Of a stretch of DNA of 64,000 bases, positions 15,048-57,093 are shown one piece after another. Position numbers and translations under genes: made by a program. Source of the stretch: an uncultured Bacteroidales bacterium (GTDB lineage Bacteria; Bacteroidota; Bacteroidia; Bacteroidales; UBA932); contig ONKO01000005.1 in the NCBI GenBank assembly GCA_900318445.1, positions 31,631 through 95,630 on the forward strand, read 5' to 3'. The notes under the pieces are model-generated. The model searched no databases. It saw only the letters and a program-made list of their open reading frames with translations, and had not been told where the DNA came from. Numbering within the stretch: position 1 is the stretch's first letter; each line of letters opens with the position of its first letter.

Positions 15048-15137
15048 TAACGCGCTGTCAGCCAATGCTTTAAGTTTTTCTCTTTCGGCTGTTCTGCCTA
15101 AAGAGGATCCGTGGCAGCATTGACAATCAGAGGTTTA
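15048..15137. repeat. 90-bp dyad-box/palindrome element, core type A (copy 1)
   Basis: TAAcgcgcTGTCAGCCAatgctTTA + 40-bp core containing CTCTTTCGGC..GCCTAAAGAG + ggcagcatTGACAATCAgaggtTTA. Confidence 0.8.
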
Positions 15138-15209
15138 CAAAGATTCGCCCATTGACCGTGCCGGAGCTCTTTCTCCAAAAATGACTATCTTTGCAAAAAT
15201 TTTGGAGCT

Positions 15210-16157
15210 ATGGCAGTGGAATTCCCCGCAAATTATTGGAAAGATTACGAGCTTCTGGACAGCGGCAACGGCGAAAAGCTGGAGCGCTTTGGCAAGTACG
15301 TGCTGCGCAGGCCGGAGCCCAAGGCTCTGTGGACGCCGTCCATGAGCGAGGCCGATTGGAAACGCCTCCTGCACGTAACCTTCCAGCCCGGTGCCGGCTT
15401 TGGCAAGGCGGGCAAGGAGGACAGCGGCACATGGAACAAGTCTAAGCGCATGGACGACCAGTGGAGCATTGCCTACAACGGTGCCCCGGATCCGGAGACG
15501 CACGCTGCCAGCGACCTGCACATTGCCCTCAGGCTGGGGCTCACCTCCTTCAAGCACGTGGGTGTGTTCCCCGAGCAGGCCCCCAACTGGGAGTTTATCT
15601 TCAAGGAGACCAGCCGCCTCGCCCGCATCCACAAGGCCAACGGTCTCCCGGCCCCCAAGGTGCTCAACCTCTTTGCCTACACGGGAGCCGCATCGCTTGC
15701 CGCCAAATGCGCCGGGGCCGATGTCACCCACCTGGACTCCGTGCGCCAGGTAGTCACCTGGGCCCGCGAGAACATGGAGCGCAGCGGCCTGGACGGCGTG
15801 CGCTGGGTGGTGGAAGATGCCCTCAAGTTCGCTAAGCGCGAAGCCAAACGCGGCAACAAGTACGATGGCATCATCCTGGATCCCCCTGCCTACGGCCACG
15901 GCCCCGACGGCGAAAAGTGGAAACTGGACGAGCTCCTCTTCGGCCTGCTCCAGAATGTATCGGCCATCCTCAGCGAGCGCGACGCCTTCATGGTCCTTAA
16001 CCTCTACTCCAACGGCTACAGTGCCGCCCTCGGCGAAACCGTCGTGCGCGAAGCCTTCAAGGGCCAGTTCAAGGAAATGACCTCCGGCGAGCTCGCCTTC
16101 AACGACTCCTTCGGCAAGGTGATGCCCCTGAGCATCTACGTACGCCTCAAGCGATAG
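15210..16157 (+). CDS. class I SAM-dependent methyltransferase (RlmI/RlmK-like)
   Basis: YELLDSGNGEKLERFG, VLNLFAYTG, IILDPPAYG; -7 box TATCTTTG at 15186-15193. Confidence 0.85.
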   Translation: MAVEFPANYWKDYELLDSGNGEKLERFGKYVLRRPEPKALWTPSMSEADWKRLLHVTFQPGAGFGKAGKEDSGTWNKSKRMDDQWSIAYNGAPDPETHAASDLHIALRLGLTSFKHVGVFPEQAPNWEFIFKETSRLARIHKANGLPAPKVLNLFAYTGAASLAAKCAGADVTHLDSVRQVVTWARENMERSGLDGVRWVVEDALKFAKREAKRGNKYDGIILDPPAYGHGPDGEKWKLDELLFGLLQNVSAILSERDAFMVLNLYSNGYSAALGETVVREAFKGQFKEMTSGELAFNDSFGKVMPLSIYVRLKR

Positions 16158-16162
16158 CTGCA

Positions 16163-16252
16163 TAATCGGCTAATTACCAGCACACTAAAAAAATCTCTTT
16201 AGGCTGTTCGGCCTAAAGAGATTTTTCAATAACGCTGATAATCAACTAGTTA
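16163..16252. repeat. 90-bp element, core type A (copy 2)
   Basis: TAAtcggcTAATTACCAgcacaCTA + core AAAATCTCTTTAGGC-TGTTCG-GCCTAAAGAGATTTT + aataacgcTGATAATCAactagTTA. Confidence 0.88.
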
Positions 16253-16265
16253 CAAAGATTCGAGA

Positions 16266-18668: not shown

Positions 18669-18672
18669 ATTA

Positions 18673-21837: not shown

Positions 21838-21908
21838 AGAATACAAAGGTAAGTATTTTTTAGTTGTAGAAAAATGCTATCTTTGCGAAAATTTAAACCT
21901 ATACCAAT

Positions 21909-23399: not shown

Positions 23400-23638
23400 C
23401 ACGGGAAGAAGTATTTGAAGGACTCAAGGAAATCCTCACGAACATCCGCCCCAACACAGACCTGAGCAAAGCCGGTTTCGAGACCGAACTTGTCCGGGAA
23501 CTGGGAGTGGACTCGCTTACCATGCTCATCCTGTCGCTGGCCGCCGAGGAAAAGTTCGGCATGCACTTCCCCGACGGCGCCCCCGCCCCCTTTACGGTGG
23601 GAGACGTCTGCGACGCCGTGCTGGCAGCACAGAAGTAA
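23396..23638 (+). CDS. acyl carrier protein
   Basis: LGVDSL phosphopantetheine site; ATGA overlap with the ligase gene. Confidence 0.88.
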   Translation: MTREEVFEGLKEILTNIRPNTDLSKAGFETELVRELGVDSLTMLILSLAAEEKFGMHFPDGAPAPFTVGDVCDAVLAAQK

Positions 23639-23655
23639 CCTCCGCGAACCGCATC

Positions 23656-23745
23656 TAATCGGCTCTACATCAACGTATTAGTAAAATCTCTTTAGGCTGC
23701 TCGGCCTAAAGAGATTTTATTATAGTACTAATAATCAACCATTTA
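23656..23745. repeat. 90-bp element, core type A (copy 3)
   Basis: TAAtcggcTCTACATCAacgtaTTA + GTAAAATCTCTTTAGGCTGCTCGGCCTAAAGAGATTTTAT + tatagtacTAATAATCAaccatTTA. Confidence 0.88.
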
Positions 23746-23813
23746 CATGCAGTGCGCAATGATAGACATTTATGGGAAAAGTTGTATATTTGCAGGTTAC
23801 TAAACCAAACGTG

Positions 23814-24944
23814 ATGCTAAATCTGACCATTGTTCCCGTAAAAGGGAAGCGTATGCTGCGGCAGTTCATCCAGTTTCCCCTGGATCTTTATAAGGATTGT
23901 GACAAGTGGGTGCCCGCTTTCGAGGACGACGAATACAAGTCCCTGGGCCCGGAGAATCCCTCCCTCTCGTTCTGCGACAGGGAACTCTACCTCGCCTTCC
24001 GCGGGGAAGAAGTGGTGGGCCGGGTCGCTGCCATCATCAACCACAACGCCAACAAGAAGTGGGGAGAGGAAGTGGTGCGCTTTGGCTGGATAGACTTCGT
24101 GGAAGACTTCGAGGTGGCCAAAGCCCTCGTGGATACCGTGGCCGATTGGGGCAAAGCCCGCGGCGCCACCAAGATCAAGGGTCCCCTGGGCTTCACCGAT
24201 ATGGACCGCGAAGGCCTTCTGGTAGAAGGTTTTGAGAACGAGAGTCCCTTCACGGTTATCTATAACTACCCCTATTACGGCGAATTCCTGGAGCGAATGG
24301 GCTTCACCAAAGACGCCGACTGGACGCAGCGTTTCATCGAGTTCTCCGACAAACTGCCCTCCATGTTCCAGTACGCAGACCTGGTGGAAAAGCGCTACGG
24401 CGTACACATTTACCGCGCCTCCACGCTGCGCAAGATGGCCCGCCGCGGCCGTGAGATGTTCCACGTGCTCAACAGTGCCTTCGCCGGCCTGTACGAGTAC
24501 AGCCAGCTCTCCAAGGAGCAGATAGACGGCTATGTCAAGCAGTATGTCCCCGTTCTCAACAAGGACATGGTAGCTTTCGTGGTCAATGACAAGGACGAAC
24601 TCGTCGCCTTCACGGTAACCATGCCGCACATCAGCGCTGGCGTCCGCAAGGCCAAAGGCCGTATCTTCCCCTTTGGCTGGATGCACATCCTGCCCGAGCT
24701 CAATCCCCGGAAAAATCACATGGCCGAAGGCCTCCTCATCGGCGTACTCCCTGAATATCAGACCAAGGGGGCAGCCCTTCTCATGTTCAAGTACCTGCAC
24801 GAGAACTTTATCAAACTGGGAATCAAGCGCATGCTGCTTAACCCCCAGCTCGAAGAGAATCACAAGGTGCAAACCTTGTTCGGCGACTATGATCCCAAGC
24901 CCTACCAGCGCCGCCGCTCATACGTAAAAGCGATTACCCTGTAA
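23814..24944 (+). CDS. YghO-like tandem-GNAT acyltransferase (bacterial ceramide synthase-like)
   Basis: FIQFPLDLY, VVGRVAAIIN, RFGWIDF, GPLGFTDMDREGLLVEGF, YNYPYY, PQLEENHKV. A -7 box at 23785-23792 argues for a start at 23811/23814 rather than 23772. Confidence 0.75.
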   Translation: MLNLTIVPVKGKRMLRQFIQFPLDLYKDCDKWVPAFEDDEYKSLGPENPSLSFCDRELYLAFRGEEVVGRVAAIINHNANKKWGEEVVRFGWIDFVEDFEVAKALVDTVADWGKARGATKIKGPLGFTDMDREGLLVEGFENESPFTVIYNYPYYGEFLERMGFTKDADWTQRFIEFSDKLPSMFQYADLVEKRYGVHIYRASTLRKMARRGREMFHVLNSAFAGLYEYSQLSKEQIDGYVKQYVPVLNKDMVAFVVNDKDELVAFTVTMPHISAGVRKAKGRIFPFGWMHILPELNPRKNHMAEGLLIGVLPEYQTKGAALLMFKYLHENFIKLGIKRMLLNPQLEENHKVQTLFGDYDPKPYQRRRSYVKAITL

Positions 24945-25031
24945 ACGCTTGATTATTAGCACTCTAACAAAATCTCTTTAGGCCGATCAGCCTAAAGAGA
25001 AAAACATAGAACATTGATAATAAACAGTTTA
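24942..25031. repeat. 90-bp element, core type A (copy 4; first TAA is the GNAT stop codon)
   Basis: TAAacgctTGATTATTAgcactCTA + core TCTCTTTAGGCCGATCAGCCTAAAGAGA + tagaacatTGATAATAAacagtTTA. Confidence 0.88.
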
Positions 25032-25044
25032 GGCGGGGTGCGCA

Positions 25045-25743: not shown

Positions 25744-25767
25744 GTCTTTAATTCGAAGTGACTTAAA

Positions 25768-25870
25768 GCGACCATCAGGTCGCCGGCCGGGCCCGGGATT
25801 TTTCGCAGAAAAATCGTAGAGGGCGAAAAGGCCGCAGGGGGATAATAGGGGGGCAGCGCCCCCCTCTACG
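25768..25870. repeat. cluster of short hairpins including a GTAG-footed REP-like palindrome
   Basis: Minus strand GTAG-AGGGGGGC-gct-GCCCCCCT (25869-25847); also GCGACC/GGTCGC and GATTTTTC/GAAAAATC stems. Confidence 0.6.
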
Positions 25871-26099
25871 GTACAGGATCATAACCGCTCCCGCCCCAGG
25901 GGTGGCAGCGGAGAATTCGTCTCACGGAAAGATACAGCCCCTTGAAGGGGCCATGCTTGCGAAACGCTTCCAGGGCATACTGGGAGCACGTGGGAGTAAA
26001 GCGGCACGACGGCGGCGTAAAGGGGCTGATGCACACCTGATAGAACTTGATGAGCACCACCGCCGGGAAAATAAGGATATTCTTAAGCGTTGGATGCAT
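25866..26099 (-). CDS. yidD: membrane protein insertion efficiency factor
   Basis: [27 protein letters not shown]. Confidence 0.95.
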
Positions 26100-26448: not shown

Positions 26449-26451
26449 GCA

Positions 26452-28259: not shown

Positions 28260-28261
28260 GC

Positions 28262-31906: not shown

Positions 31907-32823
31907 TGGAAGCCACGGTCGTCAAGAACGCAGGCAGCCATTACCTGCTGTCTCCCCTGCCGGAATGGAAACTGTTTCCGGCCGTGCTGCGCGGTAAAAT
32001 CCGCCTCAAGGGCAGTTCCATCACCAACCCCATCGCCGTGGGAGACCGCGTGGAGTATATTCCGGACGGGGATACCGCCGTCATCACGGAAGTTCTTCCG
32101 CGCCGCAACTACCTCATCCGACGCTCTACCAACCTGTCCCGGCAGGCACACATCATCGCCGCCAACCTGGACCGCGCCTATGTGGTGGTATCGCTGTATT
32201 TCCCGGAGGTAAAACTCCCCTTCCTGGACCGCATCCTTGTCACCTGCGAACTCTACGGCATACCCGCCACCATCGTCCTTTCCAAGACCGATATGTACCG
32301 GGAAATGGCGGCCGATGAGCTCACGCATTTCCGGAGCATCTACGAGGGCGCGGGATATCCGGTCCTGGAAACGTCCGTGCGCACCGGAGAAGGCATCGAA
32401 GCACTCCGGGAAGCCTGCAAGGGGCACGTCAACCTGTTTTCCGGAGAGTCCGGCGTAGGAAAATCGTCCCTTATCAAGGCCCTGGACCCTTCACTGGATC
32501 CCAAGGTTGGCGCCATATCGGCCGCCCACCTGCAGGGCAAGCATACCACCTCCCTCTATGAGATGTATCCGCTTTCTTCGGGCGGCTACGTCATTGACTC
32601 CCCCGGCATCCGCGGCTTCGGCCTGGTCGACGTGGAGAAAGAGGAAATCGCCCGCTATTTCCCGGAAATGCTGCGGGCCTCCGAAGGCTGCCGGTTCACC
32701 CCCTGCACCCATACCCACGAGCCCGGTTGCGCCGTCAAGGCGGCCGTAGACGCCGGCCTCATTCCTCCGGAACGCTACAATTCCTACCTGGGCATGCTGG
32801 AGGAAGACAAGAAATTCCGATGA
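31906..32823 (+). CDS. rsgA: ribosome small subunit-dependent GTPase A
   Basis: SKTD, GESGVGKSS, GKHTT, DSPG, CRFTPCTHTHEPGC. Confidence 0.95.
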   Translation: MEATVVKNAGSHYLLSPLPEWKLFPAVLRGKIRLKGSSITNPIAVGDRVEYIPDGDTAVITEVLPRRNYLIRRSTNLSRQAHIIAANLDRAYVVVSLYFPEVKLPFLDRILVTCELYGIPATIVLSKTDMYREMAADELTHFRSIYEGAGYPVLETSVRTGEGIEALREACKGHVNLFSGESGVGKSSLIKALDPSLDPKVGAISAAHLQGKHTTSLYEMYPLSSGGYVIDSPGIRGFGLVDVEKEEIARYFPEMLRASEGCRFTPCTHTHEPGCAVKAAVDAGLIPPERYNSYLGMLEEDKKFR

Positions 32824-34190
32824 AACTCAGCCGCGAAATCCTTCGCTTGGCTGTTCCCAGCATCCTGGCCAATATCACCGTTCCCCTGGTGGGCATGGTG
32901 GACATTGCCGTGGTGGGACACCTGCCCGTAGAGTCATCGGCCACCCTCATCGGCGGCATCTCCATCGGCACCATGCTCTTTGACCTGCTGTACTGGAACT
33001 TCGGATTCCTCCGGGCCGGGACGGGCGGGCTCACGGCGCAGGCCTACGGACGGGGAGAGGACACCGGCGGCATCCTGGAAAGGGCGCTCCGGCTGGCACT
33101 CTCTTCGGGACTGGTCCTGATTGCCCTCCAGTGGGCCGTGGTGTGGCTCGCGTTTCTCATAGTAGACTGCAGCCCCGAGGTTCGCGCCCTGGCCTCACAG
33201 TACTTCTACATCCGCATCTGGGCGGCTCCGGCAACGCTTTCGCTCTTTGCCTACAAAGGCTGGTTCATCGGCCTGCAGGACTCGGTGCGTCCCATGACGG
33301 CCGACCTCCTGGTGAACGGCGTCAACATCCTCCTGTCCATCGTCCTGGGCATGCGGATGGGCTTCGCGGGGGTGGCCATCGGCACAGCCGCCGCCCAATG
33401 GTGCGGCTTCCTCTATTGCACCCTGGCTGCCCGTCGCCGTTTGCGAATCGGCCATAAATCCCTCATCCTCAGCAGTTTACGTTTTTCTCTTTCGCCTGTT
33501 CAGCCTAAAGAGAAAAACTTAACTAACGATAACACAGCGAGTTATAGTGCGAGCGCCTTTTTCACGCTGAACCGGGATCTGTTCTTAAGGTCCGTCGGGC
33601 TTATTGCCGTGTACATTGGTTTTACGGTGCTGAGCGCGCGGTACGGGGACCTCATGCTGGCCGTCAGCGCCATCCTGATGAAGCTGCTCATGATCTTCAG
33701 CTACTTCACCGACGGGTTTGCCTATGCCGGCGAGGCCCTTGCGGGCAAGTTCATCGGGCAGGGGCGGGCCGATGGCCTTCGCGCCACCATCCGCCAGACG
33801 TTCGCGTGGAGCGGCGGCGTGGCGGCCCTGTTCATGGTGCTCTACGGCGTGTGTGGAGTGCCGCTTTTCCGCCTCATGACCTCTGACGCAGCGGTAGTGG
33901 AAGCAGGGCGGCAGTTCCTGCCGTGGCTGCTCCTGATGCCGCCCATCGGCTGCGCGGCCTTCATGTGGGACGGAATCTATATCGGCGCCACCGCATCAAA
34001 AGAGCTCAGAAACAGTACGCTTCTTTGCGCTGCGGGCTTTTTTGCCGTATGGCTATGCGGCCTGGCGCTTTTTGGCGGCCGCTCGGTGGCACCCGAAACC
34101 GCCATCCACATTCTCATGGCCGCATACTTTGCGCACCTTGCGGTGCGAACCATTTACCTCACGGCAAGAAAAAGCGCAGTACATATCTAA
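32820..34190 (+). CDS. MATE (DinF-like) efflux transporter carrying an in-frame 90-bp element
   Basis: LAVPSILANITVPLVGMVD, GFLRAGTGGLTAQAYG, DGFAYAGEAL; start ATG 32820. Confidence 0.9.
   Translation: MKLSREILRLAVPSILANITVPLVGMVDIAVVGHLPVESSATLIGGISIGTMLFDLLYWNFGFLRAGTGGLTAQAYGRGEDTGGILERALRLALSSGLVLIALQWAVVWLAFLIVDCSPEVRALASQYFYIRIWAAPATLSLFAYKGWFIGLQDSVRPMTADLLVNGVNILLSIVLGMRMGFAGVAIGTAAAQWCGFLYCTLAARRRLRIGHKSLILSSLRFSLSPVQPKEKNLTNDNTASYSASAFFTLNRDLFLRSVGLIAVYIGFTVLSARYGDLMLAVSAILMKLLMIFSYFTDGFAYAGEALAGKFIGQGRADGLRATIRQTFAWSGGVAALFMVLYGVCGVPLFRLMTSDAAVVEAGRQFLPWLLLMPPIGCAAFMWDGIYIGATASKELRNSTLLCAAGFFAVWLCGLALFGGRSVAPETAIHILMAAYFAHLAVRTIYLTARKSAVHI
33455..33544. repeat. 90-bp element, core type A (copy 5), intragenic and in frame
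   Basis: TAAatcccTCATCCTCAgcagtTTA + core TTTTTCTCTTTCGCCTGTTCAGCCTAAAGAGAAAAA + taactaacGATAACACAgcgagTTA. Confidence 0.82.
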
Positions 34191-37677: not shown

Positions 37678-38985
37678 TTATAACTGGAAAGCCTTCTTAA
37701 TCATATCTACGCTGTCGAGTAACTCCCACCCGAAGAACTGGACAATCTTCTCTGTTCCCTGCACCTTAACTGTCTTCGTATAAGGCTTCCGGCCCATGTG
37801 CCCGTAGGCGGCCGTAGGGGAATAAATGGGATTCTTAAGTCCGAATTTCCGGATGATGGCAGAGGGCCGGAGGTCGAAGATATCGGCCACCTTCGCGGCA
37901 ATCTCTCCGTCGGAGAGGCCTTTTGCCGCCGTGCCGTACGTATCTACGAAAACGCTCACGGGCCGGGCGACGCCAATGGCGTAGGCCAGCTGCACCAGGC
38001 ACTGGTCGGCTACGCCGGCGGCTACCAGGTTCTTGGCAATGTAGCGGGCGGCATAGGCGGCACTGCGGTCTACCTTGGACGGGTCCTTGCCGGAGAAGGC
38101 TCCGCCGCCGTGCGCTCCCCTTCCGCCGTAGGTGTCCACAATGATCTTGCGGCCGGTGAGACCGGTATCACCGTGGGGGCCGCCGATGACAAATTTGCCG
38201 GTGGGGTTCACGTGGAGGGTATAGTCGTGGATGAGGGCTGCGGTCTCGGCCGGCAGCTCTGCCTTGAGGCGCGGGATGAGGATGTTTTCCACATCGGCCT
38301 TGATCTGGGCCTGCATGGCGGCGTCCACGGCAGCCTGGCCAAACTGGGCCACGGCTTCCTCGTAGTTCATCTTTCCGAGGGATGCCGGCACAAATTCGTC
38401 GTGCTGGGTGCTCAGGACGATGGTGTCCACCTTCACGGGCTCATGCGTTTCCCCGTCATATTCGATGGTAAACTGACTCTTGGCGTCGGGACGCAGGTAA
38501 GGCATGAGGGCCAGCTCATGGTGGCGGATATCGGCAAGGATGAGGAGAATCTTGTGGCTCAGGTACAGCGGCAGGGGCATGTAGTCCTCGGTGTCGCGGC
38601 AGGCATAGCCGAACATCATGCCCTGGTCTCCGGCGCCCTGCTCCTCCTCGGAGGCACGTTCCACGCCGCGGTTGATGTCGGCGCTCTGCTCGTGGATGGC
38701 GCTGAGCACACCACAGCCGTTGGCGTCGAACATATACTCGGCCTTGGTGTAACCGATTTTGCGGATGGTATTACGAACGGTAGTCTGGATATCTACATAG
38801 GCCTCGGCCTTCACCTCTCCCATCACCACCACCATGCCGGTAGAGCAGAAACTCTCGCAGGCCACCTTGGCCTCCGGGTCCTGCTTGAGGAACTCATCCA
38901 GGATGGCGTCACTGATCTGGTCGGCCACTTTATCCGGATGGCCTTCGCTCACCGATTCGCTGGTAAATAAGTAATTCTTAGCCAT
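37678..38985 (-). CDS. metK: S-adenosylmethionine synthetase
   Basis: [28 protein letters not shown]. Confidence 0.97.
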
Positions 38986-39026: not shown

Positions 39027-39054
39027 AAAACACAAAACACTGATATGAATGTAA

Positions 39055-39100
39055 TTTTAGCATTTTTTAACGTGGTTGCAAGCAGCCAAATCTATCCACA
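39055..39100 (-). ncRNA. SAM-II-class riboswitch aptamer
   Basis: Minus strand TGTGGATAGATTTGGCTGCTTGCAACCACGTTAAAAAATGCTAAAA: GTGG/CCAC stem, GATTT...TTGCA, A-tract, GCTAAA pairing with TTTGGC; upstream of metK; -7 box TACCTTTG at 39123-39116. Confidence 0.72.
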
Positions 39101-39170
39101 TATTTTTGGGGGCTGCAAAGGTAGAACAATTTTTTTAATCCACCAAATTTTTTTCATCTTTTTCACGTTT

Positions 39171-48453: not shown

Positions 48454-48457
48454 GGCC

Positions 48458-48567
48458 CCGTTTTTGCTAACGCCCTCATTATCAGCCGATAATAAAATCT
48501 CCTCCGGGCGAAAACGACCGGAGGAGATTGTGTAAAATGCTGATAGTTAGAACGTTAACAAAAACGG
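48458..48567. repeat. 90-bp element, core type B (48468-48557), with 9-bp outer inverted repeats
   Basis: CCGTTTTTGc TAAcgcccTCATTATCAgccgaTAA + core AATCTCCTCCGG-GCGAAAACGA-CCGGAGGAGATT + TAAaatgcTGATAGTTAgaacgTTA aCAAAAACGG. Confidence 0.88.
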
Positions 48568-48655
48568 ATATTGCATGCATCCTATTTGATTTGTACTTAT
48601 GGCAAAACTATGCTACATTTGTAGCAAGTGAAACCAGTTTTTTAAGTATTATACC

Positions 48656-49537
48656 ATGAGATTAATTGCTAAATTCTCGCTCGTTCTGGTAGCTTTTATG
48701 ATGACTGCCCCAATTTGCATGACTGCACAAGACAAGACCATTAAAAGGAAAGTTGCCATTGGACGTTTCTCCAATGAAACGCAGTATGCTAAAGGTCTGT
48801 TCTATGACAAAGATAACGATCCTATGCGTAAGCAGGCACTCGACATCTTGTCTTCCAAACTTGCATTAAGTGGTAAGTTTATACTCCTTGAGAGGGATGA
48901 TCTCGATGTCCTGGTTGCAGAGGCTGGTGATGGTATGAACAAGATTGGCGCAGACTACATAATTCTTGGCTCCATCACGGAGTACGGCCGTAAAGCAGAA
49001 GGGCAGCAAAAAGTTTTCTCTTCTACTAAGACTCAGACTGTTGAGGCAGGAGTAAGCATTCGGCTGGTAGAAGCATCCACTGGTCTTATCATTTATTCCG
49101 ACGAGGCGAAGGGCTTTGCTGAAACGTCCACTAAACAGACGCTGGGAATTGGTGGCACTGCCGGATTTGACGCGACCCTCAGCGATAAAGCTATCTCCGC
49201 TGCGCTCAGCCAGCTTGTGGAGAATATTATCAATAAGTGCATGGATAAGCCCTGGCGCTCTTATATTCTCTCTGTAGAAGATGGAACCTATATTATTTCC
49301 GGGGGCGCGTCTCAGGGACTTGCTGCCGGTGATGTTTTCAACGTATACAAGAAAGGAAAGACAGTAAAGAACCCTCAGACAGGGTTTAATATTGAGTTGC
49401 CCGGCCAGAAAATAGGGATGGTGACGGTTGTCTCAACATACGGAGAGACTCCTGAGACAGAAATCTCTTTCTGCACATACGAAGGAGCCGGTTTTGACAT
49501 AAACAACCTCTCTGAAATATACATATCTGATAAATAA
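48656..49537 (+). CDS. CsgG/HfaB-family protein with FlgT-like C-terminal domain
   Basis: KVAIGRFSNETQY, FILLERDDL, GADYIILGSITEYG, KNPQTG; AT-richer than its neighbours. Confidence 0.75.
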   Translation: MRLIAKFSLVLVAFMMTAPICMTAQDKTIKRKVAIGRFSNETQYAKGLFYDKDNDPMRKQALDILSSKLALSGKFILLERDDLDVLVAEAGDGMNKIGADYIILGSITEYGRKAEGQQKVFSSTKTQTVEAGVSIRLVEASTGLIIYSDEAKGFAETSTKQTLGIGGTAGFDATLSDKAISAALSQLVENIINKCMDKPWRSYILSVEDGTYIISGGASQGLAAGDVFNVYKKGKTVKNPQTGFNIELPGQKIGMVTVVSTYGETPETEISFCTYEGAGFDINNLSEIYISDK

Positions 49538-49540
49538 TTC

Positions 49541-49885
49541 ATGTCTATGAGAAAATTTATATTATCCTTCCTGGGCGCCATCATTATAACGTCTTGTGGA
49601 GTGGGCTCCTATTCCGTCTCCTCTGGAAAAGCAGATGAGGCGATGGTTTCATTTGTCAGCTCCCAAGAAATTGCTATCTCTGTAACTATTGATGGCGAGA
49701 ATTACAGTCTCGTCAGTGTTAAGGCCGATGCCTGGAAAAAAGACAGAAACATCAAAAAGACCGCAAAGAATACCATTTACATTGCACCAGGACAGCATGA
49801 AGTGGCGGTCCAGATAGAAGGAAAGGAAGTTTGTCATAAGAAGATTTTTGTTTCGACACAGGAACACAAAATTATTGAACTATGA
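49541..49885 (+). CDS. small lipoprotein, unknown function
   Basis: Lipobox ITSC; within the csgG operon. Confidence 0.65.
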   Translation: MSMRKFILSFLGAIIITSCGVGSYSVSSGKADEAMVSFVSSQEIAISVTIDGENYSLVSVKADAWKKDRNIKKTAKNTIYIAPGQHEVAVQIEGKEVCHKKIFVSTQEHKIIEL

Positions 49886-50320
49886 GAAGATTGATTGTCC
49901 TTGCTGCGGCTGCCTTGCTGTTGTCTTCTTGCGGCGTTAGTTCCTTATACTATTGGGGCGGTACGCAGAGTGGGGCTACCGCCTATGAGAATTTGGCTTA
50001 TCAGTCTTATGACAAACAGACGCCCAAAAGTCTTTGCAAACTGGTAGCGCTTTATGAGAAAATGGTAACCAAGCCTGGCGGCCTCCGTCAGGTCCCTCCT
50101 CCCGGTATTTGTGCCGAATACGGATACCCTTTTACTCCAGGGAGAAACTGCCGTTGTCTTTGCTGAGAATGCATCGGCCAGTGAAAAGCAGTTGTTCAAA
50201 ACGGATGATTACGGTGCCTTCTTTGCAGCGAGAGGCAAGGAGATGCTAGAAAAGGAGATGGAGTATTATCCCGAGTCCGTTAAGTTTATCCAACCACTTA
50301 TTAAAAAACTGACGAAGTAG
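49882..50320 (+). pseudogene. DUF4810-like lipoprotein split by a single-base frameshift
   Basis: LLSSC, LYYWG, VPPPGICAEYGY, then continues in the +1 frame as LLLQGE...EMEYYPESVKFI; extra C in TACCCTTTTA (50124-50133). Confidence 0.7.
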
Positions 50321-50321
50321 C

Positions 50322-50996
50322 ATGAAGAGACTTTTATATATTTGCCTGCTGGCAGTTATTGTCAGTTCATGCGGCCTTACGAGCCGTCTCTCTCGCGAGA
50401 CCCAATATGCATCCATGTACGAGAACATGCCTACGACAGTTCTTGTAATGCCTCCCATCAATAACACTACTCACGTAGAAGCGAAGGACTTGCTTTATAC
50501 TTCAATCAGCCGACCGCTTGCGGAGGCTGGCTATTATGTCATCTCTCCTCTGTTGGCAATGGATATACTTAAATCCGAAAGTGCATACGATTCCGAACTA
50601 TTTATCGATAAACCTTTAACGGCGTTCCGCGATTTCTTTGGAGCCGATGCCGTGGTGTTCTCTCAGATTGATGACTGGACTAAACGCGGTTTCGGCATAG
50701 ATACGAAGATTCGGTATATAATCAAGTCGGCTATCTCCAATGAGGTGATCTTTGACAGAACCTGCAATTTACATCTGGATCTTTCCGTAAACTCTGGTAA
50801 TAGTGGCGCAATTGCAGCACTCATTGAACTGGCGGCATCGGCCATCGTTACGGCAACTACCGACCACATTGTGGCTGCCAGAAAGGCAAATTACTATATC
50901 TTCCGAGATATTCCTCGCGGGAAGTATAGTCCGGACTACCTCAAAGACCAAGGTGTGCTGGTAGATGCTAAGGACATTACCGTCACTGTGAAATAA
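50322..50996 (+). CDS. DUF799/GNA1162-family lipoprotein
   Basis: VSSC lipobox, LVMPPIN, PLAEAGYYV, FGADAV, IPRGKYSPDY. Confidence 0.78.
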   Translation: MKRLLYICLLAVIVSSCGLTSRLSRETQYASMYENMPTTVLVMPPINNTTHVEAKDLLYTSISRPLAEAGYYVISPLLAMDILKSESAYDSELFIDKPLTAFRDFFGADAVVFSQIDDWTKRGFGIDTKIRYIIKSAISNEVIFDRTCNLHLDLSVNSGNSGAIAALIELAASAIVTATTDHIVAARKANYYIFRDIPRGKYSPDYLKDQGVLVDAKDITVTVK

Positions 50997-51025
50997 AAAG
51001 ACAGGCCCCATCGGCCCACCCCCGC

Positions 51026-51526
51026 CTACTTCGCGGCCTCGGCCAGGATGTTCTCCAGTTCGTCGCGGTCCATGTTGCCTTCGAGGCTCATGAAGGTGAA
51101 GTCTTCGGCGTCACGGGAGATGAGGATGAGGGAGGAGACCTTTTTACCGTCCCCGGCGGTGAAAAGGCGGGTGGTTTCACCGTCCTCCTTGGCCTCGAAC
51201 AGGAGTTCGAACTTCTTTCCGTCCAGAAGCTTTTTCACATCGGCCTGCAGCTGGACGGCAGCACTCGAATTCTCTTCCACTTCCAGCAGATAAAACCCGG
51301 AGAGCGTGTTGATAATGGGCGTGAGGTTCACTTTCTCGCCCTGGCTGTTCTCCATGTCAACATCGGGGAGTTTACCAATCATGCGGAACATGGCGGGGGA
51401 CACGTAGACGGCGCTGACGCCATTGAGGTCTGAATACTTGTTATAGAGTTCCTTCGCGCTCTGGGCAAAGGCGGAGACTGCAAGGAAAAGGGCAGTCATA
51501 AGGGTGAGTATCTTTTTCATTTCCAA
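51026..51526 (-). CDS. DUF4252 protein
   Basis: Signal peptide, LYNKYSDLNGVSAVYVSPAMF. Confidence 0.75.
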   Translation of the reverse strand: MEMKKILTLMTALFLAVSAFAQSAKELYNKYSDLNGVSAVYVSPAMFRMIGKLPDVDMENSQGEKVNLTPIINTLSGFYLLEVEENSSAAVQLQADVKKLLDGKKFELLFEAKEDGETTRLFTAGDGKKVSSLILISRDAEDFTFMSLEGNMDRDELENILAEAAK

Positions 51527-51858
51527 TAAGCTATTTTGTTGTCAATTTCGGTTTCCTGCTTTTCCAGGATAACGGCGCCTTGCGAAACGGCTTCTCCCAT
51601 GCGGCCGAAAGCCTCTTCGATGGCGGCATAGGCCAGGTACGGGTCCGAGAACGTGTCCTTGGGCTCGGGAGTGCGCAGGGTAGCGGCAAGGCCGATGCCA
51701 GCAACTACGGCTACAGAGGCGGCGATGCTCCAGACGGCGGCGTTGTGCCGGCGGGGCAGCCTTACGTGGAGGTCTTCCGGAACGGGGATGGATTCATCGG
51801 CCCCGATTCTCTCCCAGTCCTCTGCCGAGAGTTTTTCTATGTCCTCAATGCGTTTCAT
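51517..51858 (-). CDS. putative anti-sigma-like single-TM protein
   Basis: WSIAASVAV TM, DTFSDPYLAYA; directly after an ECF sigma gene. Confidence 0.6.
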   Translation of the reverse strand: MKRIEDIEKLSAEDWERIGADESIPVPEDLHVRLPRRHNAAVWSIAASVAVVAGIGLAATLRTPEPKDTFSDPYLAYAAIEEAFGRMGEAVSQGAVILEKQETEIDNKIAYWK

Positions 51859-52328
51859 AGGCTTTGTTTGAGTTTTTTGCGGGCCAGGCTCACCTGAACC
51901 CTGATATTAAGCGGACTGAGTCCTGTTTTCTGAGCAATCTCTTCGTAAGACAATCCTTCGAATACCCTCAGCTGAAGCAGGTGCTTCTGCGTGGGAGGCA
52001 GCCCCTCAATGGCTTTCCGCACTTCCCGGAGCCTCTCCCGGTTTTCCAGTGCTGTGTCGGGCGGTGCTTCCAGGGCCGCGGCTTCATCGGGTTCCTCCGT
52101 GGGCCGGGCCCGCCGGATGCGGTCGATGCAGAGGTTTTTCAGGAGCATCGTTCCGTAGGCCGATGGGTTCCCGATCATCTCCAGATGGTCCCGGAGGTTC
52201 CACAGTTTGAGGTACAGCTCCTGGACGGCGTCCTTGGCATCGGCCTCGCTCTCCAGCATATAGAAGGCCATGCGGTAGAAGCGCGTCTGAAGGGGCATCC
52301 AAACGGTATGGAATACCTGCTCAGTCAT
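51855..52328 (-). CDS. ECF RNA polymerase sigma factor
   Basis: DAKDAVQELYLKLW, KNLCIDRIR, LSYEEIAQKTG. Confidence 0.92.
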   Translation of the reverse strand: MTEQVFHTVWMPLQTRFYRMAFYMLESEADAKDAVQELYLKLWNLRDHLEMIGNPSAYGTMLLKNLCIDRIRRARPTEEPDEAAALEAPPDTALENRERLREVRKAIEGLPPTQKHLLQLRVFEGLSYEEIAQKTGLSPLNIRVQVSLARKKLKQSL

Positions 52329-52821
52329 TGTTCACGGCGGCCATCAGTTTGTCCAGCGTAACGGAGCCGCGCACACAGATGATGGTTCCGTCAGGATCCC
52401 AGAGAATGCAGTCACGGATTTCATCGCCCTTGTCGATCCCGTAAATGCTGAGCTTGTCTCCGTCATCTTTTGCTTCCAGGATGAGTTCCATGCCGGAGAG
52501 GATTTGCTTCGCTTTCTGGACAAAGCGCGCCTTGACGTCGGCCTCGGCATCCTCGAAATCCAGGATGGAGACCCTTTTGATTCTGTTGAAAGCGCGAAGG
52601 ACCGCGCGGTCTTCCTCGTCGAGGTCGCTGTCGGAGAGGGCGATGGTTTTGAGGAGGGCTACTCCCAGGGGGCCCACCGAGATTCCGTCAAAGCCCTCGT
52701 GGTGACGGTACTCATTGATGAGCGTTTGCATCTTGCCTGCCGGGTTTCCCGCCAGGGCCATGGTAACGGCGAACAGTGCCGGTCCCATGAAAAAAGTAAG
52801 AGTGAGTAATAGTTTTTTCAT
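52321..52821 (-). CDS. DUF4252 protein
   Basis: Signal peptide; typical DUF4252-sigma-antisigma-DUF4252 arrangement. Confidence 0.65.
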   Translation of the reverse strand: MKKLLLTLTFFMGPALFAVTMALAGNPAGKMQTLINEYRHHEGFDGISVGPLGVALLKTIALSDSDLDEEDRAVLRAFNRIKRVSILDFEDAEADVKARFVQKAKQILSGMELILEAKDDGDKLSIYGIDKGDEIRDCILWDPDGTIICVRGSVTLDKLMAAVNND

Positions 52822-52847
52822 TGTCAATTCTCAAGCGCTTGCTTTCT

Positions 52848-52874
52848 TAAGACGCAGAACGGAGTTATTTGTTA
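52848..52874 (-). promoter_or_regulatory. candidate ECF-sigma (autoregulatory) promoter
   Basis: Minus strand TAAC-N16-CGTCTTA upstream of the ECF operon, matching generic AAC...CGT ECF spacing. Confidence 0.5.
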
Positions 52875-52884
52875 AAAGAAAAAA

Positions 52885-52975
52885 ACTGAAATCGGACAAA
52901 AATGGCGATTTTGACCGATTTCAGTCTGGCTCGTTCCCAAAATCGGACAAAAAAGGCAAAAATGTCCGATTTTGG
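52885..52975. repeat. double-hairpin (four-arm) repeat
   Basis: AAATCGGAC-N15-G(A/T)CCGATTT twice, just after the esterase stop codon. Confidence 0.75.
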
Positions 52976-52983
52976 CCGACGGC

Positions 52984-53847
52984 TTACTGGTGGCGGCTGA
53001 AATTGCGCGAAGCGAACGGGAAGGAAATGCGCAGGGCGCTGCGCCAGTACTCCCACGTGTGGCCGCCGTTACGCACGCGCAGCTCGCTGTGGATGCCGGC
53101 CGCCTTCATTTTGAGGTGCAGTTCCACCGACAGGCGCATGAGGGCGTCGTCGTCTCCGCAGTCCAGGAACCACGCGACGGTTTTAAGCTGGCCGATGGTC
53201 TCTTCGTCGGCATTGTCCACAAAATCCAGGGCCGAATGTTCCCGCACGGACAGGTCCGTGATGACAAGTTTGCTGCCGGGCTTGTCCGTTCCGCGTACTT
53301 CACGGTGCTTGTTGTCCAGCCAGGCGCTCATGCCATAGGCGCTGGAGAACATGTCGGGGTGGCGCTGGGCATACACGATGGAACCGCCGCCGCCCATGGA
53401 CAGGCCCATGATGGCGCGCTGGCCTTTACTGCCGCCGCAACTGAATTTCTTTTCGGCCGCAGGGAGGAGCTCCTGGAAGAAGAAGTCCTCGTAAGGCCAG
53501 TTCTCTACATTGAAATAGCCGTTCTGATAGCCGTGGACGTCATTGTCACCTGCGTTGGGCATGATGATGACGGTCGGAACCAGTTCGCCGCTGGCAATGA
53601 GTTCGTCGGCCACGCTCTTGGCATGGCCGGTGTTTACCCAGTTGGTGTAGTCTCCGTAGAGGCCGTGCAGCAGGTAGATGACGGGGTAGTGCTCCGAGGC
53701 CTTGTAGCCGGCGGGAAGATACACATTGTACTTCTGCTCACATCCCAGCTTCTTGCTGGCGATGGACTCAGTGACAACTTGGGAGGGCTGGGCCGATGCT
53801 GCGAGCGCGAGCGTCAGTGCCAGCAGGGAGAAGACTAGCTTTTTCAT
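52984..53847 (-). CDS. secreted esterase (CE1-like alpha/beta hydrolase)
   Basis: YPVIYLLHG, GLSMGG, DCGDDD, GGHTWEYW. Confidence 0.9.
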   Translation of the reverse strand: MKKLVFSLLALTLALAASAQPSQVVTESIASKKLGCEQKYNVYLPAGYKASEHYPVIYLLHGLYGDYTNWVNTGHAKSVADELIASGELVPTVIIMPNAGDNDVHGYQNGYFNVENWPYEDFFFQELLPAAEKKFSCGGSKGQRAIMGLSMGGGGSIVYAQRHPDMFSSAYGMSAWLDNKHREVRGTDKPGSKLVITDLSVREHSALDFVDNADEETIGQLKTVAWFLDCGDDDALMRLSVELHLKMKAAGIHSELRVRNGGHTWEYWRSALRISFPFASRNFSRHQ

Positions 53848-53849
53848 GG

Positions 53850-54554
53850 TTACGGGTGTACTAGGGTGCCCACCTTTTCTCCGGAGAGGAGTTTGGTGAG
53901 GTTGCCGGTGGCGTTCATATCAAAGACGATGATGGGCATCTTGCCGTCGCTGCACAGGGCGTAGGCAGTCTGGTCCATCACCTTGAGATGCTTGGAAATG
54001 GCCTCGTCGAAGGAGAGCTCGTCGTACTTGGTAGCGGTGGGGTCTTTCTCGGGATCGGCCGTATAGACGCCGTCCACGCGGGTGCCCTTGAGGAGGGCAT
54101 CGGCCCCAATCTCGAGGGCCCTGAGCGCCGCACCGCTGTCGGTGGTGAAGAAGGGGTTGCCGGTGCCGCCGGCGATGAGGGCTACGCCCCCGCGCTCCAT
54201 GACCTTCACGGCGTCGTCCCTCATATAATATTTGGCATGGGGCTCCATGGGGGTGGAGGTGAATACCACGGCGTCTACGCCCTCGGCCTTGATGAACATG
54301 CTAAGGGCCAGGGAATTGATGACGGTAGCCAGCATTCCCATTTTGTCTCCGTCCACACGGTCGAAGCCTTTGCCCACGCCCTGGAGGCCCCGGAATATGT
54401 TGCCGCCGCCGTTGACGATGGCAATCTGAAGGCCGGCCTTGGCTGCAGATGCAATTTCTTTGGCATATTTTTCCAACCATTCGGTTTCCAGGCCCTTACC
54501 GGCCGGACCGCCCAGGCTTTCGCCGCTGAGTTTGAGTAAAACGCGTTTGTACAT
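53850..54554 (-). CDS. pyrH: uridylate kinase
   Basis: LLKLSGE, GGGNIFRG, GTGNPFFTTD, DGVYTADP. Confidence 0.96.
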   Translation of the reverse strand: MYKRVLLKLSGESLGGPAGKGLETEWLEKYAKEIASAAKAGLQIAIVNGGGNIFRGLQGVGKGFDRVDGDKMGMLATVINSLALSMFIKAEGVDAVVFTSTPMEPHAKYYMRDDAVKVMERGGVALIAGGTGNPFFTTDSGAALRALEIGADALLKGTRVDGVYTADPEKDPTATKYDELSFDEAISKHLKVMDQTAYALCSDGKMPIIVFDMNATGNLTKLLSGEKVGTLVHP

Positions 54555-54659
54555 GAATGTCGTGGTTAAATAATTATAACAAAAGTATCGAAATATTGGG
54601 AAACTTCCAAGAAAGATTCCTATATTTGCATAATTGAAACAAACCTGACAACAACAATA

Positions 54660-55421
54660 ATGGCTAATTTTTTAACCTCCTCCATCGGCAAGAAGTTCAT
54701 TCAGAGCGTCAGCGGCGCTTTCCTTATCATCTTCCTGCTTCTTCACGGTACCATCAATTTTTTCTCCGTCATTGATTCCCTTCACGGAAACTTTGGCAAG
54801 GTAGCGGCCGACAACATGCCCTACACCCACGGTGACGGCTGGTTCCAGCTGGGCTGCGACTTTATGTCCTCCCCCGTCATCACCATCATGGTTCCCGTAC
54901 TGGCTCTCGGTTTCCTCATCCACATCGGCTACGGCATCTGGCTCAGCGTCCAGAACTTCCAGCGCCGCGGCGGCGTAAAGCGCTATGAGGTTTCCTCCAA
55001 GGCCAAGAACGACAGCTGGAGCGCTAAGAACATGTTCGTGCTGGGTATAGTCATCCTCGGCTTCGTGTTTTTCCACCTCACCCACTTCTGGGCCAAGATG
55101 CAGCTGCAGGAATTCACCGGCGGAGAGGCAGAGAACCCCTACTTCCTCCTTCTCAAGACCTTCGGCAACGTCTGGGTCCTTGTAGGTTACATCCTGTGGT
55201 TTGTTGCCATCTGGCTGCACCTCAACCACGGTTTCTGGAGCATGTTCCAGACCATTGGCTGGAACAACAAGAAGTGGCTTGTACGCCTTAAGGTAATCAG
55301 CACCATCGTCGCTACCCTCATCATCATCCTGTTCGTTGCGACGGCCGTCAACGCCTACATCGAGGCCAACTACGTAACGGCTTCCGCCCAGTGGACCGAG
55401 GCCATTATTGCAAATATTTAA
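54660..55421 (+). CDS. sdhC: succinate dehydrogenase/fumarate reductase cytochrome b subunit
   Basis: SSIGKKF, conserved heme His residues (LLHG, LIHI, FHLTHFW, LHLNHGFWSMFQTIG). Confidence 0.88.
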   Translation: MANFLTSSIGKKFIQSVSGAFLIIFLLLHGTINFFSVIDSLHGNFGKVAADNMPYTHGDGWFQLGCDFMSSPVITIMVPVLALGFLIHIGYGIWLSVQNFQRRGGVKRYEVSSKAKNDSWSAKNMFVLGIVILGFVFFHLTHFWAKMQLQEFTGGEAENPYFLLLKTFGNVWVLVGYILWFVAIWLHLNHGFWSMFQTIGWNNKKWLVRLKVISTIVATLIIILFVATAVNAYIEANYVTASAQWTEAIIANI

Positions 55422-55467
55422 TAAATTTCTTGCGATTCTCATTTTCATTCTGCATCTTTGTAGCCGT

Positions 55468-55518
55468 ATGAGAAAAAGCAACAATAACTGGTGGCGCGCT
55501 TACAGTCCAAACCTGTAA
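55468..55518 (+). CDS. Trp leader peptide MRKSNNNWWRAYSPNL
   Basis: 16-codon ORF with tandem TGG codons upstream of trpB2. Confidence 0.85.
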   Translation: MRKSNNNWWRAYSPNL

Positions 55519-55582
55519 GTCGCTTCGCCGTAGTTATACATGAATAGAAGGCCTGCTGACTTACAGCAGGCCTTCATTTTTT
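55499..55582 (+). promoter_or_regulatory. tryptophan attenuator (antiterminator/terminator)
   Basis: CTTACAG(55499)/CTGTAAG(55513) 1:2 stem; CTGTAAGTC/GACTTACAG alternative pairing; terminator GAAGGCCTGCTG/CAGCAGGCCTTC + T-run. Confidence 0.85.
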
Positions 55583-55618
55583 ATGCAATTTTTTATAAAC
55601 ATCAAATAACGAACTGAT

Positions 55619-56983
55619 ATGAAACAGAAAAAGTACCTGCTCCCGGAGAGCGAAATTCCCACTCATTTCTTCAACATCCAGGCTGTAATGCCCCACAAGC
55701 CCCTTCCCTTCCTGCACCCGGCCACCCGGCAGCCCCTGAAGCCCGAAGACCTTTACCCCATCTTCTGCAAGGCCTGCGCCGACCAGGAACTGAACCAGAC
55801 CGATGAGTGGATCCCCATCCCCGAGCCCGTCCGCGAGCAGTACGCCGCCTACCGCTGCACTCCGCTGGTGCGTGCCTACGAACTGGAAAAGGCACTCGGC
55901 ACTCCCGCCCATATCTACTTCAAGAACGAGAGCGTTTCGCCTGCCGGCAGCCACAAGCTCAACAGTGCCATCGCCCAGGCCTACTACGCCAAGGAGCAGG
56001 GCATCACCAACCTTACCACCGAGACCGGTGCCGGCCAGTGGGGCGGTGCCCTCAGCTATGCCACCAAGAAGTTCGGCATCGACTGCGCTGTGTACATGGT
56101 AAAAGTGAGCTACGAACAGAAGCCTTTCCGCCGCAGCATCATGCAGACCTTCGGTGCCGCCGTCACTCCCTCCCCGTCCATGAGTACCCGTGCCGGTAAA
56201 GACATTCTCACCGTCAACCCCAACGACCGTGGTTCCCTGGGCTGCGCCATCTCCGAGGCCATCGAACTGGCCATGAACACCCCCAACTGCAAGTACGCGC
56301 TGGGCTCTGTCCTTAACCACGTGTGTCTGCACCAGACGGTCATCGGCCTGGAAGCCGAGAAGCAGATGGCCCTCACCGGCGAGTACCCCGACATTGTGAT
56401 TGCCTGCTTCGGCGGCGGCTCCAACTTCTGCGGCCTGGCCCTGCCGTTCATGCGCCACAAGATCTCCGGCGAGAAGAACACCCGCTTCATTGCCGCTGAG
56501 CCCAGCTCCTGCCCCAAACTCACCAAGGGCAAGTTCGAGTACGACTTTGGTGACGAGGCCGGCATGACCCCGCTGCTCCCCATGTTCACACTGGGCCACA
56601 GCTTCAAACCCGCCTCCATCCACGCCGGCGGCCTGCGTTACCACGGTGCAGGCGTTATCCTCTCCCAGCTCATGAAGGACGGCTACATGGAGGCCGTGGA
56701 CATTGACCAGCTGGATTCCTTCAAGGCCGGTGTGCTCTTTGCCCAGACCGAAGGCATCATCCCCGCTCCGGAAAGCTGCCACGCCATTGCCGCCACCATT
56801 AACGAAGCCCTTAAGTGCAAGGAGTCCGGCGAGCAGAAGACCATCCTTTTCAACCTCTCCGGTCACGGCTTCGTGGACATGGCCGCCTACGACAGCTACT
56901 TCTCCGGCGAAATGCAGAACTACACCGTTACCGAGGAAGAACTGGCCAAGTTCATCGCCAGCGCCGATGCCCTGAACAAATAG
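55619..56983 (+). CDS. trpB: TrpB2-type tryptophan synthase beta-like enzyme
   Basis: GSHKLNSA, TETGAGQWG, CFGGGSN, IHAGGLRYHG, NLSGHG; 454 aa. Confidence 0.93.
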   Translation: MKQKKYLLPESEIPTHFFNIQAVMPHKPLPFLHPATRQPLKPEDLYPIFCKACADQELNQTDEWIPIPEPVREQYAAYRCTPLVRAYELEKALGTPAHIYFKNESVSPAGSHKLNSAIAQAYYAKEQGITNLTTETGAGQWGGALSYATKKFGIDCAVYMVKVSYEQKPFRRSIMQTFGAAVTPSPSMSTRAGKDILTVNPNDRGSLGCAISEAIELAMNTPNCKYALGSVLNHVCLHQTVIGLEAEKQMALTGEYPDIVIACFGGGSNFCGLALPFMRHKISGEKNTRFIAAEPSSCPKLTKGKFEYDFGDEAGMTPLLPMFTLGHSFKPASIHAGGLRYHGAGVILSQLMKDGYMEAVDIDQLDSFKAGVLFAQTEGIIPAPESCHAIAATINEALKCKESGEQKTILFNLSGHGFVDMAAYDSYFSGEMQNYTVTEEELAKFIASADALNK

Positions 56984-57093
56984 CCGTTTTTGTTAACGGC
57001 CTAATTAGTAGTGTATTACGTAATCTCCTCCGGGCGGAAACGACCGGAGGAGATTTTATTATCGGCTGACAATGAGCAGATTAGCAAAAACGG
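56984..57093. repeat. 90-bp element, core type B (56994-57083), with outer inverted repeats
   Basis: CCGTTTTTGt TAAcggccTAATTAGTAgtgtaTTA + core AATCTCCTCCGG-GCGGAAACGA-CCGGAGGAGATT + ttatcggcTGACAATGAgcagaTTA gCAAAAACGG. Confidence 0.88.

Follow-up and report, generated by a model that had tools for sequence, protein, structure and literature searches.

Families of box-flanked palindromic repeats in rumen Bacteroidales are paired with RAYT-like Y1 transposase genes and carry predicted IHF sites

The 64,000-nt stretch of DNA analyzed here (the window; positions 31,631 to 95,630 of contig ONKO01000005.1, assembly GCA_900318445.1), which belongs to an uncultured Bacteroidales bacterium from ruminant gut samples, contains seven copies of a 90-bp element in which a 40-bp palindromic core lies between two 25-bp boxes, and the question raised by this locus is what such repeats are and what has spread them. 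All seven copies, starting at window positions 15048, 16163, 23656, 24942, 33455, 48468, and 56994, were confirmed, as were the 25+40+25 layout, the outer TAA and TTA, and the two core types described in the initial annotation, which had proposed either paired protein-binding or recombination sites around a hairpin or a non-autonomous mobile element. We put at roughly 0.8 the probability that these are non-coding palindromic repeats of ∼110 bp, each family of which flanks its own gene for a RAYT-like transposase of the Y1/HUH type and has likely been spread by that enzyme in trans, with bending by a host IHF-type protein as a predicted part of the process.

The studied genome (G000; 2.3 Mb, 88% complete) was scanned for box pairs with an iterated profile at spacings from 55 to 79, as the initial annotation had suggested, and the fixed spacing held: 118 of the 135 pairs were found at a spacing of either 65 (69 pairs) or 66 (49 pairs), compared with 0, 0, and 1 pairs at spacings of 63 to 67 in three locally shuffled genomes. 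A strict pattern produced 66 matches in G000 and none for its reversed control. The invariant length is true of the seven window copies, whereas core length across the genome is 40 or 41 bp and, in relatives, usually 39 to 41 bp. Similarly, the Y and R of the degenerate dyad box are kept in all 14 window boxes, but the boxes are loose, with 2 to 6 mismatches at the 17 specified positions; symmetrized, the genome profile reads YAAnnnnYTGAT-W-ATCARnnnnTTR. The exact 11-mer of the box occurs once in the window, where the profile scan detected no eighth box pair, and a BLAST-type DNA search of 30 relatives left the element itself unmatched, so that a profile was required.

The 119 pairs at spacings of 64 to 66 comprise five to six core families (49 copies of family B, 39 of A, 12 of C, 7 of E, 6 of D, and 6 others, one of them not palindromic); in the window, five copies belong to family A and two, at 48468 and 56994, to family D. 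The core folds as a hairpin, with z values from −1.7 to −10.7 across the seven window copies. The boxes are not stems, because their free positions are neither self-complementary (0.276 versus 0.285 after shuffling) nor common to the left and right box (identity of 0.313 versus 0.305). A conserved CG dinucleotide lies about 8 to 11 bp outside each TAA/TTA, at offset −11/−10 in 77 of 78 half elements of family A, −9 in 89 of 98 of family B and 11 of 12 of family D, and −8 in 13 of 14 of family E, against a background of 7.7%, and the full unit is therefore about 106 to 112 bp long. From the outside inward, each half consists of the CG, 6 to 9 bases, the 25-bp box, a 5- to 7-bp linker, and a family-specific hairpin arm.

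According to our own gene calls, genomic contexts of the 119 copies are 48 tandem, 47 convergent, and 16 divergent gaps, 1 gene interior, and 7 contig edges, whereas gaps of at least 110 nt are 216 tandem, 77 convergent, and 98 divergent. In 25 of 30 cases, copies that neighbor each other within 3.5 kb share a family (8.8 expected). In family B, 20 of the 49 copies have a neighbor that is at least 90% identical and lies in unrelated flanks, compared with 0 of 39 in family A; judging from these sequences, family B looks young and family A old.

A search of G000 for the Y1_Tnp domain returned four matches, three of which were accepted; the fourth, on contig C31, is a cytidylate-kinase-like protein and was discarded as a false positive. 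The three RAYT-like proteins, ∼310 aa long and mutually 32 to 41% identical, contain the HUH motifs DHTH, DHLH, and NHYH and the catalytic Tyr within LAYSNNNP, LIYLGNNGP, and ISYCYNNS. All three genes are flanked on both sides by elements of one family: A (C21:98241/99398), B (C8:14099/15467), and C (C15:22483/23634). Looking for a co-occurring HUH gene, one of the checks that the initial annotation had named, proved decisive: each of the three lies between elements of a single family, and the cores that had been regarded as interchangeable are family-specific, each linked to its own transposase. The best structural match of a predicted model (pLDDT of 94) is the E. coli TnpA-REP (4ER8; Foldseek E value of 1.6e-4, Z of 15.0, root mean square deviation of 2.7, 160 aligned). 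The ∼170-aa helical C-terminal part of these enzymes has no Pfam match; the nearest Pfam-bearing Atlas clusters (HTH_23, HTH_3, and Bac_DnaA_C; scores of 0.79 to 0.82) offer a weak lead. The enzyme genes are single-copy and occupy a fixed locus, given that paralogs are just 32 to 41% identical and neighboring genes are common across species. Homologs are found in 72 of 150 genomes of the genus; clustered at 50% identity, those with E values up to 1e-30 make 324 clusters. In an order-level sample, the enzyme profile matched 2 of 300 genomes, weakly and at the N terminus, and counts of the box-pair pattern were mostly near control. Eight genomes from other Bacteroidales families (G025, G414, G472, G538, G548, G589, G593, and G597) had 11 to 19 pattern matches versus 1 to 5 in the control.

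G000 also carries a second, distant Y1-like gene (C21:205005-205898; 297 aa), the product of which is about 25% identical to the RAYT-like enzymes over 120 aa. The arrays beside it, with a period of 83 to 84, have the box centered between two inverted GCCCGA-type arms; such array repeats are located at C21:204730/204814 and 208425/208509, C27:389142/389225, and C14:114193/114277.

The pairing of enzyme and repeat extends to relatives. Among homologous genes of the genus, 28 of 29 have elements at a distance of at most 1.5 kb, mostly one on each side and with differing cores, and a box pair at a spacing of 63 to 67 was present in 28 of the 29 homologous loci from other genomes, compared with 1 to 5 of 29 for five control spacings. 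Cores of families D and C and E-like cores flank their cognate genes in genomes G066, G228, and G700. At least five strict matches were found in 44 of the 72 genus genomes that carry the gene versus 5 of the 78 that lack it; a standalone nucleoid-organizer site, which had also been suggested, is disfavored by this tracking of copy number with the transposase. Arms within a locus have a similarity of 0.88 (23 loci), which falls to 0.76 between loci whose enzymes are more than 70% identical (7 pairs) and to 0.44 to 0.47 below 60% identity (455 pairs), the compared loci being related by descent and not independent. In one enzyme clade, the genomic neighbors stay the same across species and the core has changed; in some genomes, the gene of the same clade is flipped between its two elements. 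The family C gene with both of its elements (C15:22483-23723 in G000) is missing in the sister genome G700 (locus L384) and present at the same locus in G066.

The box itself resembles a known host-factor site. It consists of two overlapping inverted copies of WATCARnnnnTTR, with 9 bp separating the Y|T step from the A|R step; the same sequence is given as the IHF consensus, together with a 9-bp kink spacing and three IHF sites in phage lambda attP, in 10.1101/382655. This consensus is matched with at most one mismatch, on the better side, by 193 of the 238 boxes. In 15 kb of phage lambda DNA, the three highest scores of the box profile within attP (ranks 5, 13, and 16 of 14,977) fall on the three consensus sites, which we take to be H′, H1, and H2. 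The single typical HU/IHF protein of G000, 92 aa long and encoded on contig C15, has an RGFGSF stretch that aligns with IHF-beta, for which an Arg46-beta contact has been described (PMC8421141), and a Bacteroides member of the HU/IHF family assists CTnDOT integration (PMC6606824). The symmetry of the box, as far as its sequence can tell, suits a homodimeric protein of the IHF/HU family. A Fis-like reading of the box was dropped in favor of the IHF consensus.

The Y1 gene pairing and the TnpA-REP fold together indicate a REPIN/REPtron-like system and not a tyrosine-recombinase or nucleoid-organizer site. Its enzyme, acting in trans, would read the family-specific arm of an element and make new copies, which is highly probable. 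A homodimeric IHF/HU-family protein would probably bind each box and bend each half into a U-turn so that the arm, about 19 to 30 bp inside the box center, comes to lie beside the CG, about 20 to 23 bp outside it. Tentatively, the enzyme may then cleave at or near the outer CG and transfer the strand, attaching the element to another site, frequently in the vicinity and directly past a stop codon, where insertion would be tolerated. Settled copies would thereafter act as recombination points for inversions and for gene gain or loss. Of the initial proposals, that of a mobile element that is non-autonomous and has its hairpin between two predicted protein-binding boxes is supported.

A number of observations weigh against this reading. 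Mere nearness of element and gene is weak evidence, because elements are also present at 17 of 29 pgk control loci (19 elements, versus 56 at the transposase loci); this rate is high because elements abound in these genomes, and 11 of the 29 relatives have one straight after the pgk stop codon. Strict matches are absent from 13 of the 72 gene-bearing genomes, no Y1 gene was found in G061 (89% complete) and G068 (97%), which have 47 and 41 matches, respectively, and, related genomes not being independent, the association tests overstate the link. NCBIfam model REP_Tyr_transpos (NF047646) matches the enzymes below its cut-off (23 to 40 bits versus 80), and NCBIfam cannot separate IHF from HU for the host protein, all scores being below cut-off. 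Four lambda sites outside attP score above the best attP site, and the CG is weak in family C, where 14 of 24 halves are spread over three offsets. Empty sites lack a sharp boundary, with inserts that hold up to about 17 extra bases past the CG, and several of the “empty” sites resemble partial deletions. Movement was not observed: contigs assembled from four sequencing runs contain no joint that skips an element, although contigs cannot show absence. These contigs were compared at 96% likeness, those at 85% being swamped by other species; the only clean joint at 96% is a deletion in a coding region unrelated to any element. A gap in coverage of the family B gene in two runs was not counted as evidence. 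Finally, the E. coli TnpA-REP binds single-stranded and not double-stranded DNA (PMC3333891), and the characterized TnpA-REP acts on single strands (PMC3333891 and PMC8266576), whereas IHF requires duplex, so that either one step must follow the other or the clade must be different in this respect.

Other explanations share much of this evidence. The same transposase system might operate with the box being read by the helical C-terminal domain of the enzyme instead of a host protein, as the size of that domain and the HTH-type clusters nearest to it would allow, if only as a lead. We regard this as unlikely, since the box is unchanged across enzymes that are 32 to 41% identical, and even beside the Y1 gene with about 25% identity, and equals the consensus of a known host factor; furthermore, there are 54 solo boxes scoring above 17, compared with 7 in a local shuffle, some of them located by integrase remnants and a tRNA gene. 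A somewhat better, although still minor, chance is given to the possibility that the repeats are kept mainly for a role in the host, be it chromosome folding, topological insulation, or hairpins at RNA 3′ ends, with the transposase as a domesticated maintenance factor. Between strains, the arms are nearly invariant (1 difference in 242 positions, versus 13 in 220 at fixed box positions, 27 in 176 at free ones, and 6 to 9% at four-fold sites, among three related sequences), convergent gaps hold 47 of the 111 classified copies but make up only 77 of the 391 gaps of at least 110 nt, one enzyme clade holds its locus across species while the core changes, and families persist where the enzyme was not found. 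On the other hand, the near-identical family B copies in unrelated flanks and the differing occupancy in sister genomes speak for spread, and a terminator scan, uninformative overall, passed just one of five scanned window copies, the 23 matches in the region being within the shuffle range of 19 ± 4. The earlier statement that the element is not a plain terminator is supported. The host-role explanation is, in any case, compatible with transposase-driven spread.

Tyrosine recombinase sites, put forward in the initial annotation, belong to a third group of models, in which a tyrosine recombinase or DDE transposase is the partner of the repeats, these being its cassette sites or miniature elements (att-, attC-, pdif-, or MITE-like). 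The order of end, IHF site, and arm does recall the lambda att architecture, and copies delimit gene cassettes and inversions, but no integrase or DDE gene was found linked to the families, every traced family leads to a Y1 gene, and the few empty sites show no target-site duplication. None of the five integrase-family matches in the genome was shown to bracket or track the families, and the only one with elements nearby (C11:2551) adjoins two different families. These models are largely refuted by the Y1 association and appear very improbable.

The system thus works like REPIN-RAYT and has its gene-level hallmarks, with the GTAG foot missing. As in REPtrons (PMC3333891, PMC3116915, PMC5581495, and PMC6006769), a single-copy Y1/HUH gene lies between its own multicopy palindromic repeats, several enzyme-repeat pairs coexist in a genome and are inherited vertically at a fixed locus with occasional loss, and the repeats are extragenic, often between convergent genes, locally clustered, and targeted by insertion sequences (IS). 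In contrast to those repetitive extragenic palindromic (REP) sequences, none of the family logos has a GTAG foot beside the core hairpin (GTGG is confined in families B and E to the outer terminus, some 33 nt away from the core), each unit has, in place of two short hairpins, a single hairpin flanked by two degenerate boxes whose spacing is fixed, the terminal dinucleotide is CG and not the CT/CA of the cleavage sites in PMC8266576, and the enzyme, at about 310 aa, has a long C-terminal domain and scores below the NCBIfam cut-off. When the elements were compared with REPIN doublets, inverted halves were present, no excision joint was seen in contigs, and empty sites were imprecise.

TIRtrons, encoding the TIRYT or TnpA-Y1 of subclass 2.1, are similar in that, according to PMC3733652 and PMC6006769, the Y1 protein has a C-terminal extension that may be HTH-like and the gene has long flanking inverted repeats unrelated to GTAG REPs, some families of which are repeated in the genome. 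Inspection of the family logos and listed flanks of the present elements did not reveal the GGGGWSAS motif of that group, and each flank here is a complete palindromic element with up to about 120 copies; subclass 2.1 has been reported to have a median length of 238 aa and no REP-like flanks. In E. coli, BIME-1 (also known as RIB) combines a REP-type repeat with an IHF site near gene 3′ ends (PMC3333891), but with one IHF site between two REPs and in one subtype, whereas two symmetric sites lie here outside a single hairpin in all families and species examined. The Bacteroidetes TnpA-REP subclasses 2.4 and 2.6 (PMC6006769) share the phylum and have repeats called “atypical” or “double-foot”, the latter recalling GTGG..CCAC of family B; subclass 2.6 repeats are hairpins of 13 to 49 nt, boxless among the rows compared, and the enzymes of both subclasses have median lengths of 179 to 194 aa and a WQ motif that was not seen here. 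The relation to these subclasses was judged by motif comparison. RIB elements were reportedly described by Boccard and Prentki in 1993. Literature searches, which for the most part did not extend to subscription papers and covered Table S1 of Quentin 2018 in part, found no published description of the box-core-box layout. The initial annotation had not recognized the element as a named family; its kind is named (REP/REPIN-RAYT), and it is the layout that was not found described. On sequence evidence, then, the elements are unlike described REPs in lacking a GTAG foot and in having fixed geometry, a terminal CG, and symmetric boxes that fit the IHF consensus.

Movement of REP-type repeats and the reasons why bacteria retain RAYT genes are open questions, and many natural enzyme-repeat pairs that combine a common scaffold with an exchangeable core, together with a host cofactor and a cut site that are both predicted, allow direct tests of specificity, of what IHF does, and of the mechanism. 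In addition, a clade of long-tailed Y1 proteins, of a kind reported without REP-like flanks, gains an abundant repeat partner, the IHF/HU protein of Bacteroidales gains a candidate binding motif, and the repeats suggest one origin of altered gene order and gene turnover in Bacteroidales of the rumen.

Such turnover was assessed by comparing G000 with 1.18 Mb of the sister genome G700. Among the 119 sites of G000, 90 could not be called in G700, 22 were shared, 2 were empty, 4 were rearranged, and 1 was at an end; of the 86 sites of G700, 50 could not be called in G000, 23 were shared, 8 were empty (one a false call and three resembling partial deletions), and 5 were rearranged. Control sites were rearranged in 4 of 147 callable cases (p of about 0.02): copies are enriched at breakpoints of inversions and of gene gain or loss. 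Three cases have element-genes-element in one genome and a single element in the other. One involves a foreign, low-GC 1.7-kb cassette with a broken gene for a Spi-inhibitor-domain protein and a lipoprotein-like gene, which G000 and four other genomes lack and which is flanked by a ∼75-bp direct duplication of left box and core that starts at the CG; a TGA within the duplication terminates the captured gene. The case of the C31 gene is likely a loss in G700, because outgroups G701 and G379 have it, and the third, with an ABC gene, is ambiguous in polarity. Part of the turnover could be due to ordinary homologous recombination between copies. A bolder and rather doubtful proposal would have a Bacteroidales-specific HUH branch act on double-stranded DNA folded by an IHF-type protein, like lambda integrase and Cas1-Cas2, with the repeats as portable capture and integration sites: the enzyme would join DNA at the terminal CG and carry neighboring genes, and the product would enter a resident copy, duplicating about 75 bp. 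If true, a dispersed gene-cassette mechanism would be shaping the genomes of an abundant rumen genus.

The clearest rearrangement in the window involves the two family D copies (48468..48557 and 56994..57083), which form both ends of an 8.4-kb segment (48558..56993) that is inverted relative to G700 and G066. Family D flanks its own enzyme gene in G066, G228, and G700, in each case at the site corresponding to 56994, and the G700 D unit has on one side the inverted sequence following 48468 and on the other the sequence following 56994. The reverse complement of 48468 agrees with the element beside the G700 transposase gene in 73 of 90 bases and has a common left flank, and the 56994 copy is identical to a G700 element in 79 of 90; both resemble the same G700 element, in opposite orientations. 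The core of 48468 reads CTCCTCCGG..CCGGAGGAG. No family D transposase gene was found in the assembly of G000, which is 88% complete; we infer that this enzyme was lost from the genome and that its repeats stayed behind, a copy bounding the inversion on either side.

The family A copies of the window occupy more varied sites. Five of the seven copies start 0 to 17 nt past a real stop codon, as had been noted, and five are common to conspecific or sister sequences and missing from the closest outgroup, G066. Element 15048..15137, with boxes at 15048-15072 and 15113-15137 (the right one decayed) and core TCTCTTT..AAAGAG, occupies the region of divergent promoters that separates pgk from a methyltransferase gene; it is missing there from the pgk loci of 29 of 29 relatives and is present in the conspecific sequence L164. 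At the site just after the pgk stop codon (L049 to L077), the elements of the 11 relatives have several different cores and G000 has none, so that this site is either a repeated hot spot or a place where cores are replaced in situ. Element 16163..16252 has convergent genes on either side, and 106 to 107 bp are lacking at its site in two relatives; the methyltransferase gene between these two copies (15210..16157, forward strand) is inverted in G228 and G152. Element 23656..23745 starts 17 nt past the stop codon of a short open reading frame that we label acyl-carrier-like from our reading of its DSL motif, and in its orthologs in L163 and L164, the hairpin loop has opposite orientations. The first TAA of element 24942..25031 is the stop codon of the GNAT-family gene at 23772..24944 (forward strand), as the initial annotation had pointed out; the outer arm of the element stands in for the final codons that the gene has in relatives, and the gene, located between elements 23656 and 24942, is inverted in place in G066 and G379.

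Element 33455..33544 lies in frame within a MATE/DinF-like efflux transporter gene (32727..34190, forward strand), and relative L167 has an element with a different core at the same spot. In many relatives, the corresponding linker of the MATE gene (L086, L087, L095, L104, L167, and L172) holds inserts that vary in length, L087 and L167 having elements there; G000 itself has a second copy in frame at C19:116648. The sole Rfam match in the window, where no copy of the element was matched, is a SAM-II riboswitch (39047-39105, reverse strand) upstream of metK (37678-38985).

An IS with a ∼22-bp terminal inverted repeat is inserted in family B loops at six contig ends (C4, C5, C11, C12, C31, and C32; L405 and L406), four of which show one end of the IS and two the other; a search with the IS end gave no match among plasmids. 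Two more repeat families of G000, a short GATGTACGTACATC-type palindrome and tandem GGCGCAGGTYC units (47 and 117 matches, respectively, none of them in the window), often adjoin family B copies, some of which are duplicated along with them. A weak box (score of 12.6) lies immediately upstream of the HU/IHF gene (C15:115942) and could serve in autoregulation, as far as its position suggests. Finally, a box or box pair is located between a promoter-like motif and an S6-like start, presumably that of ribosomal protein S6, at C16:418 of G000 (L407), with single matches in G059, G061, G104, G123, G126, G139, and G160; this box is conserved also in genomes that lack the transposase, and the S6-like frame seems to be interrupted in G000.

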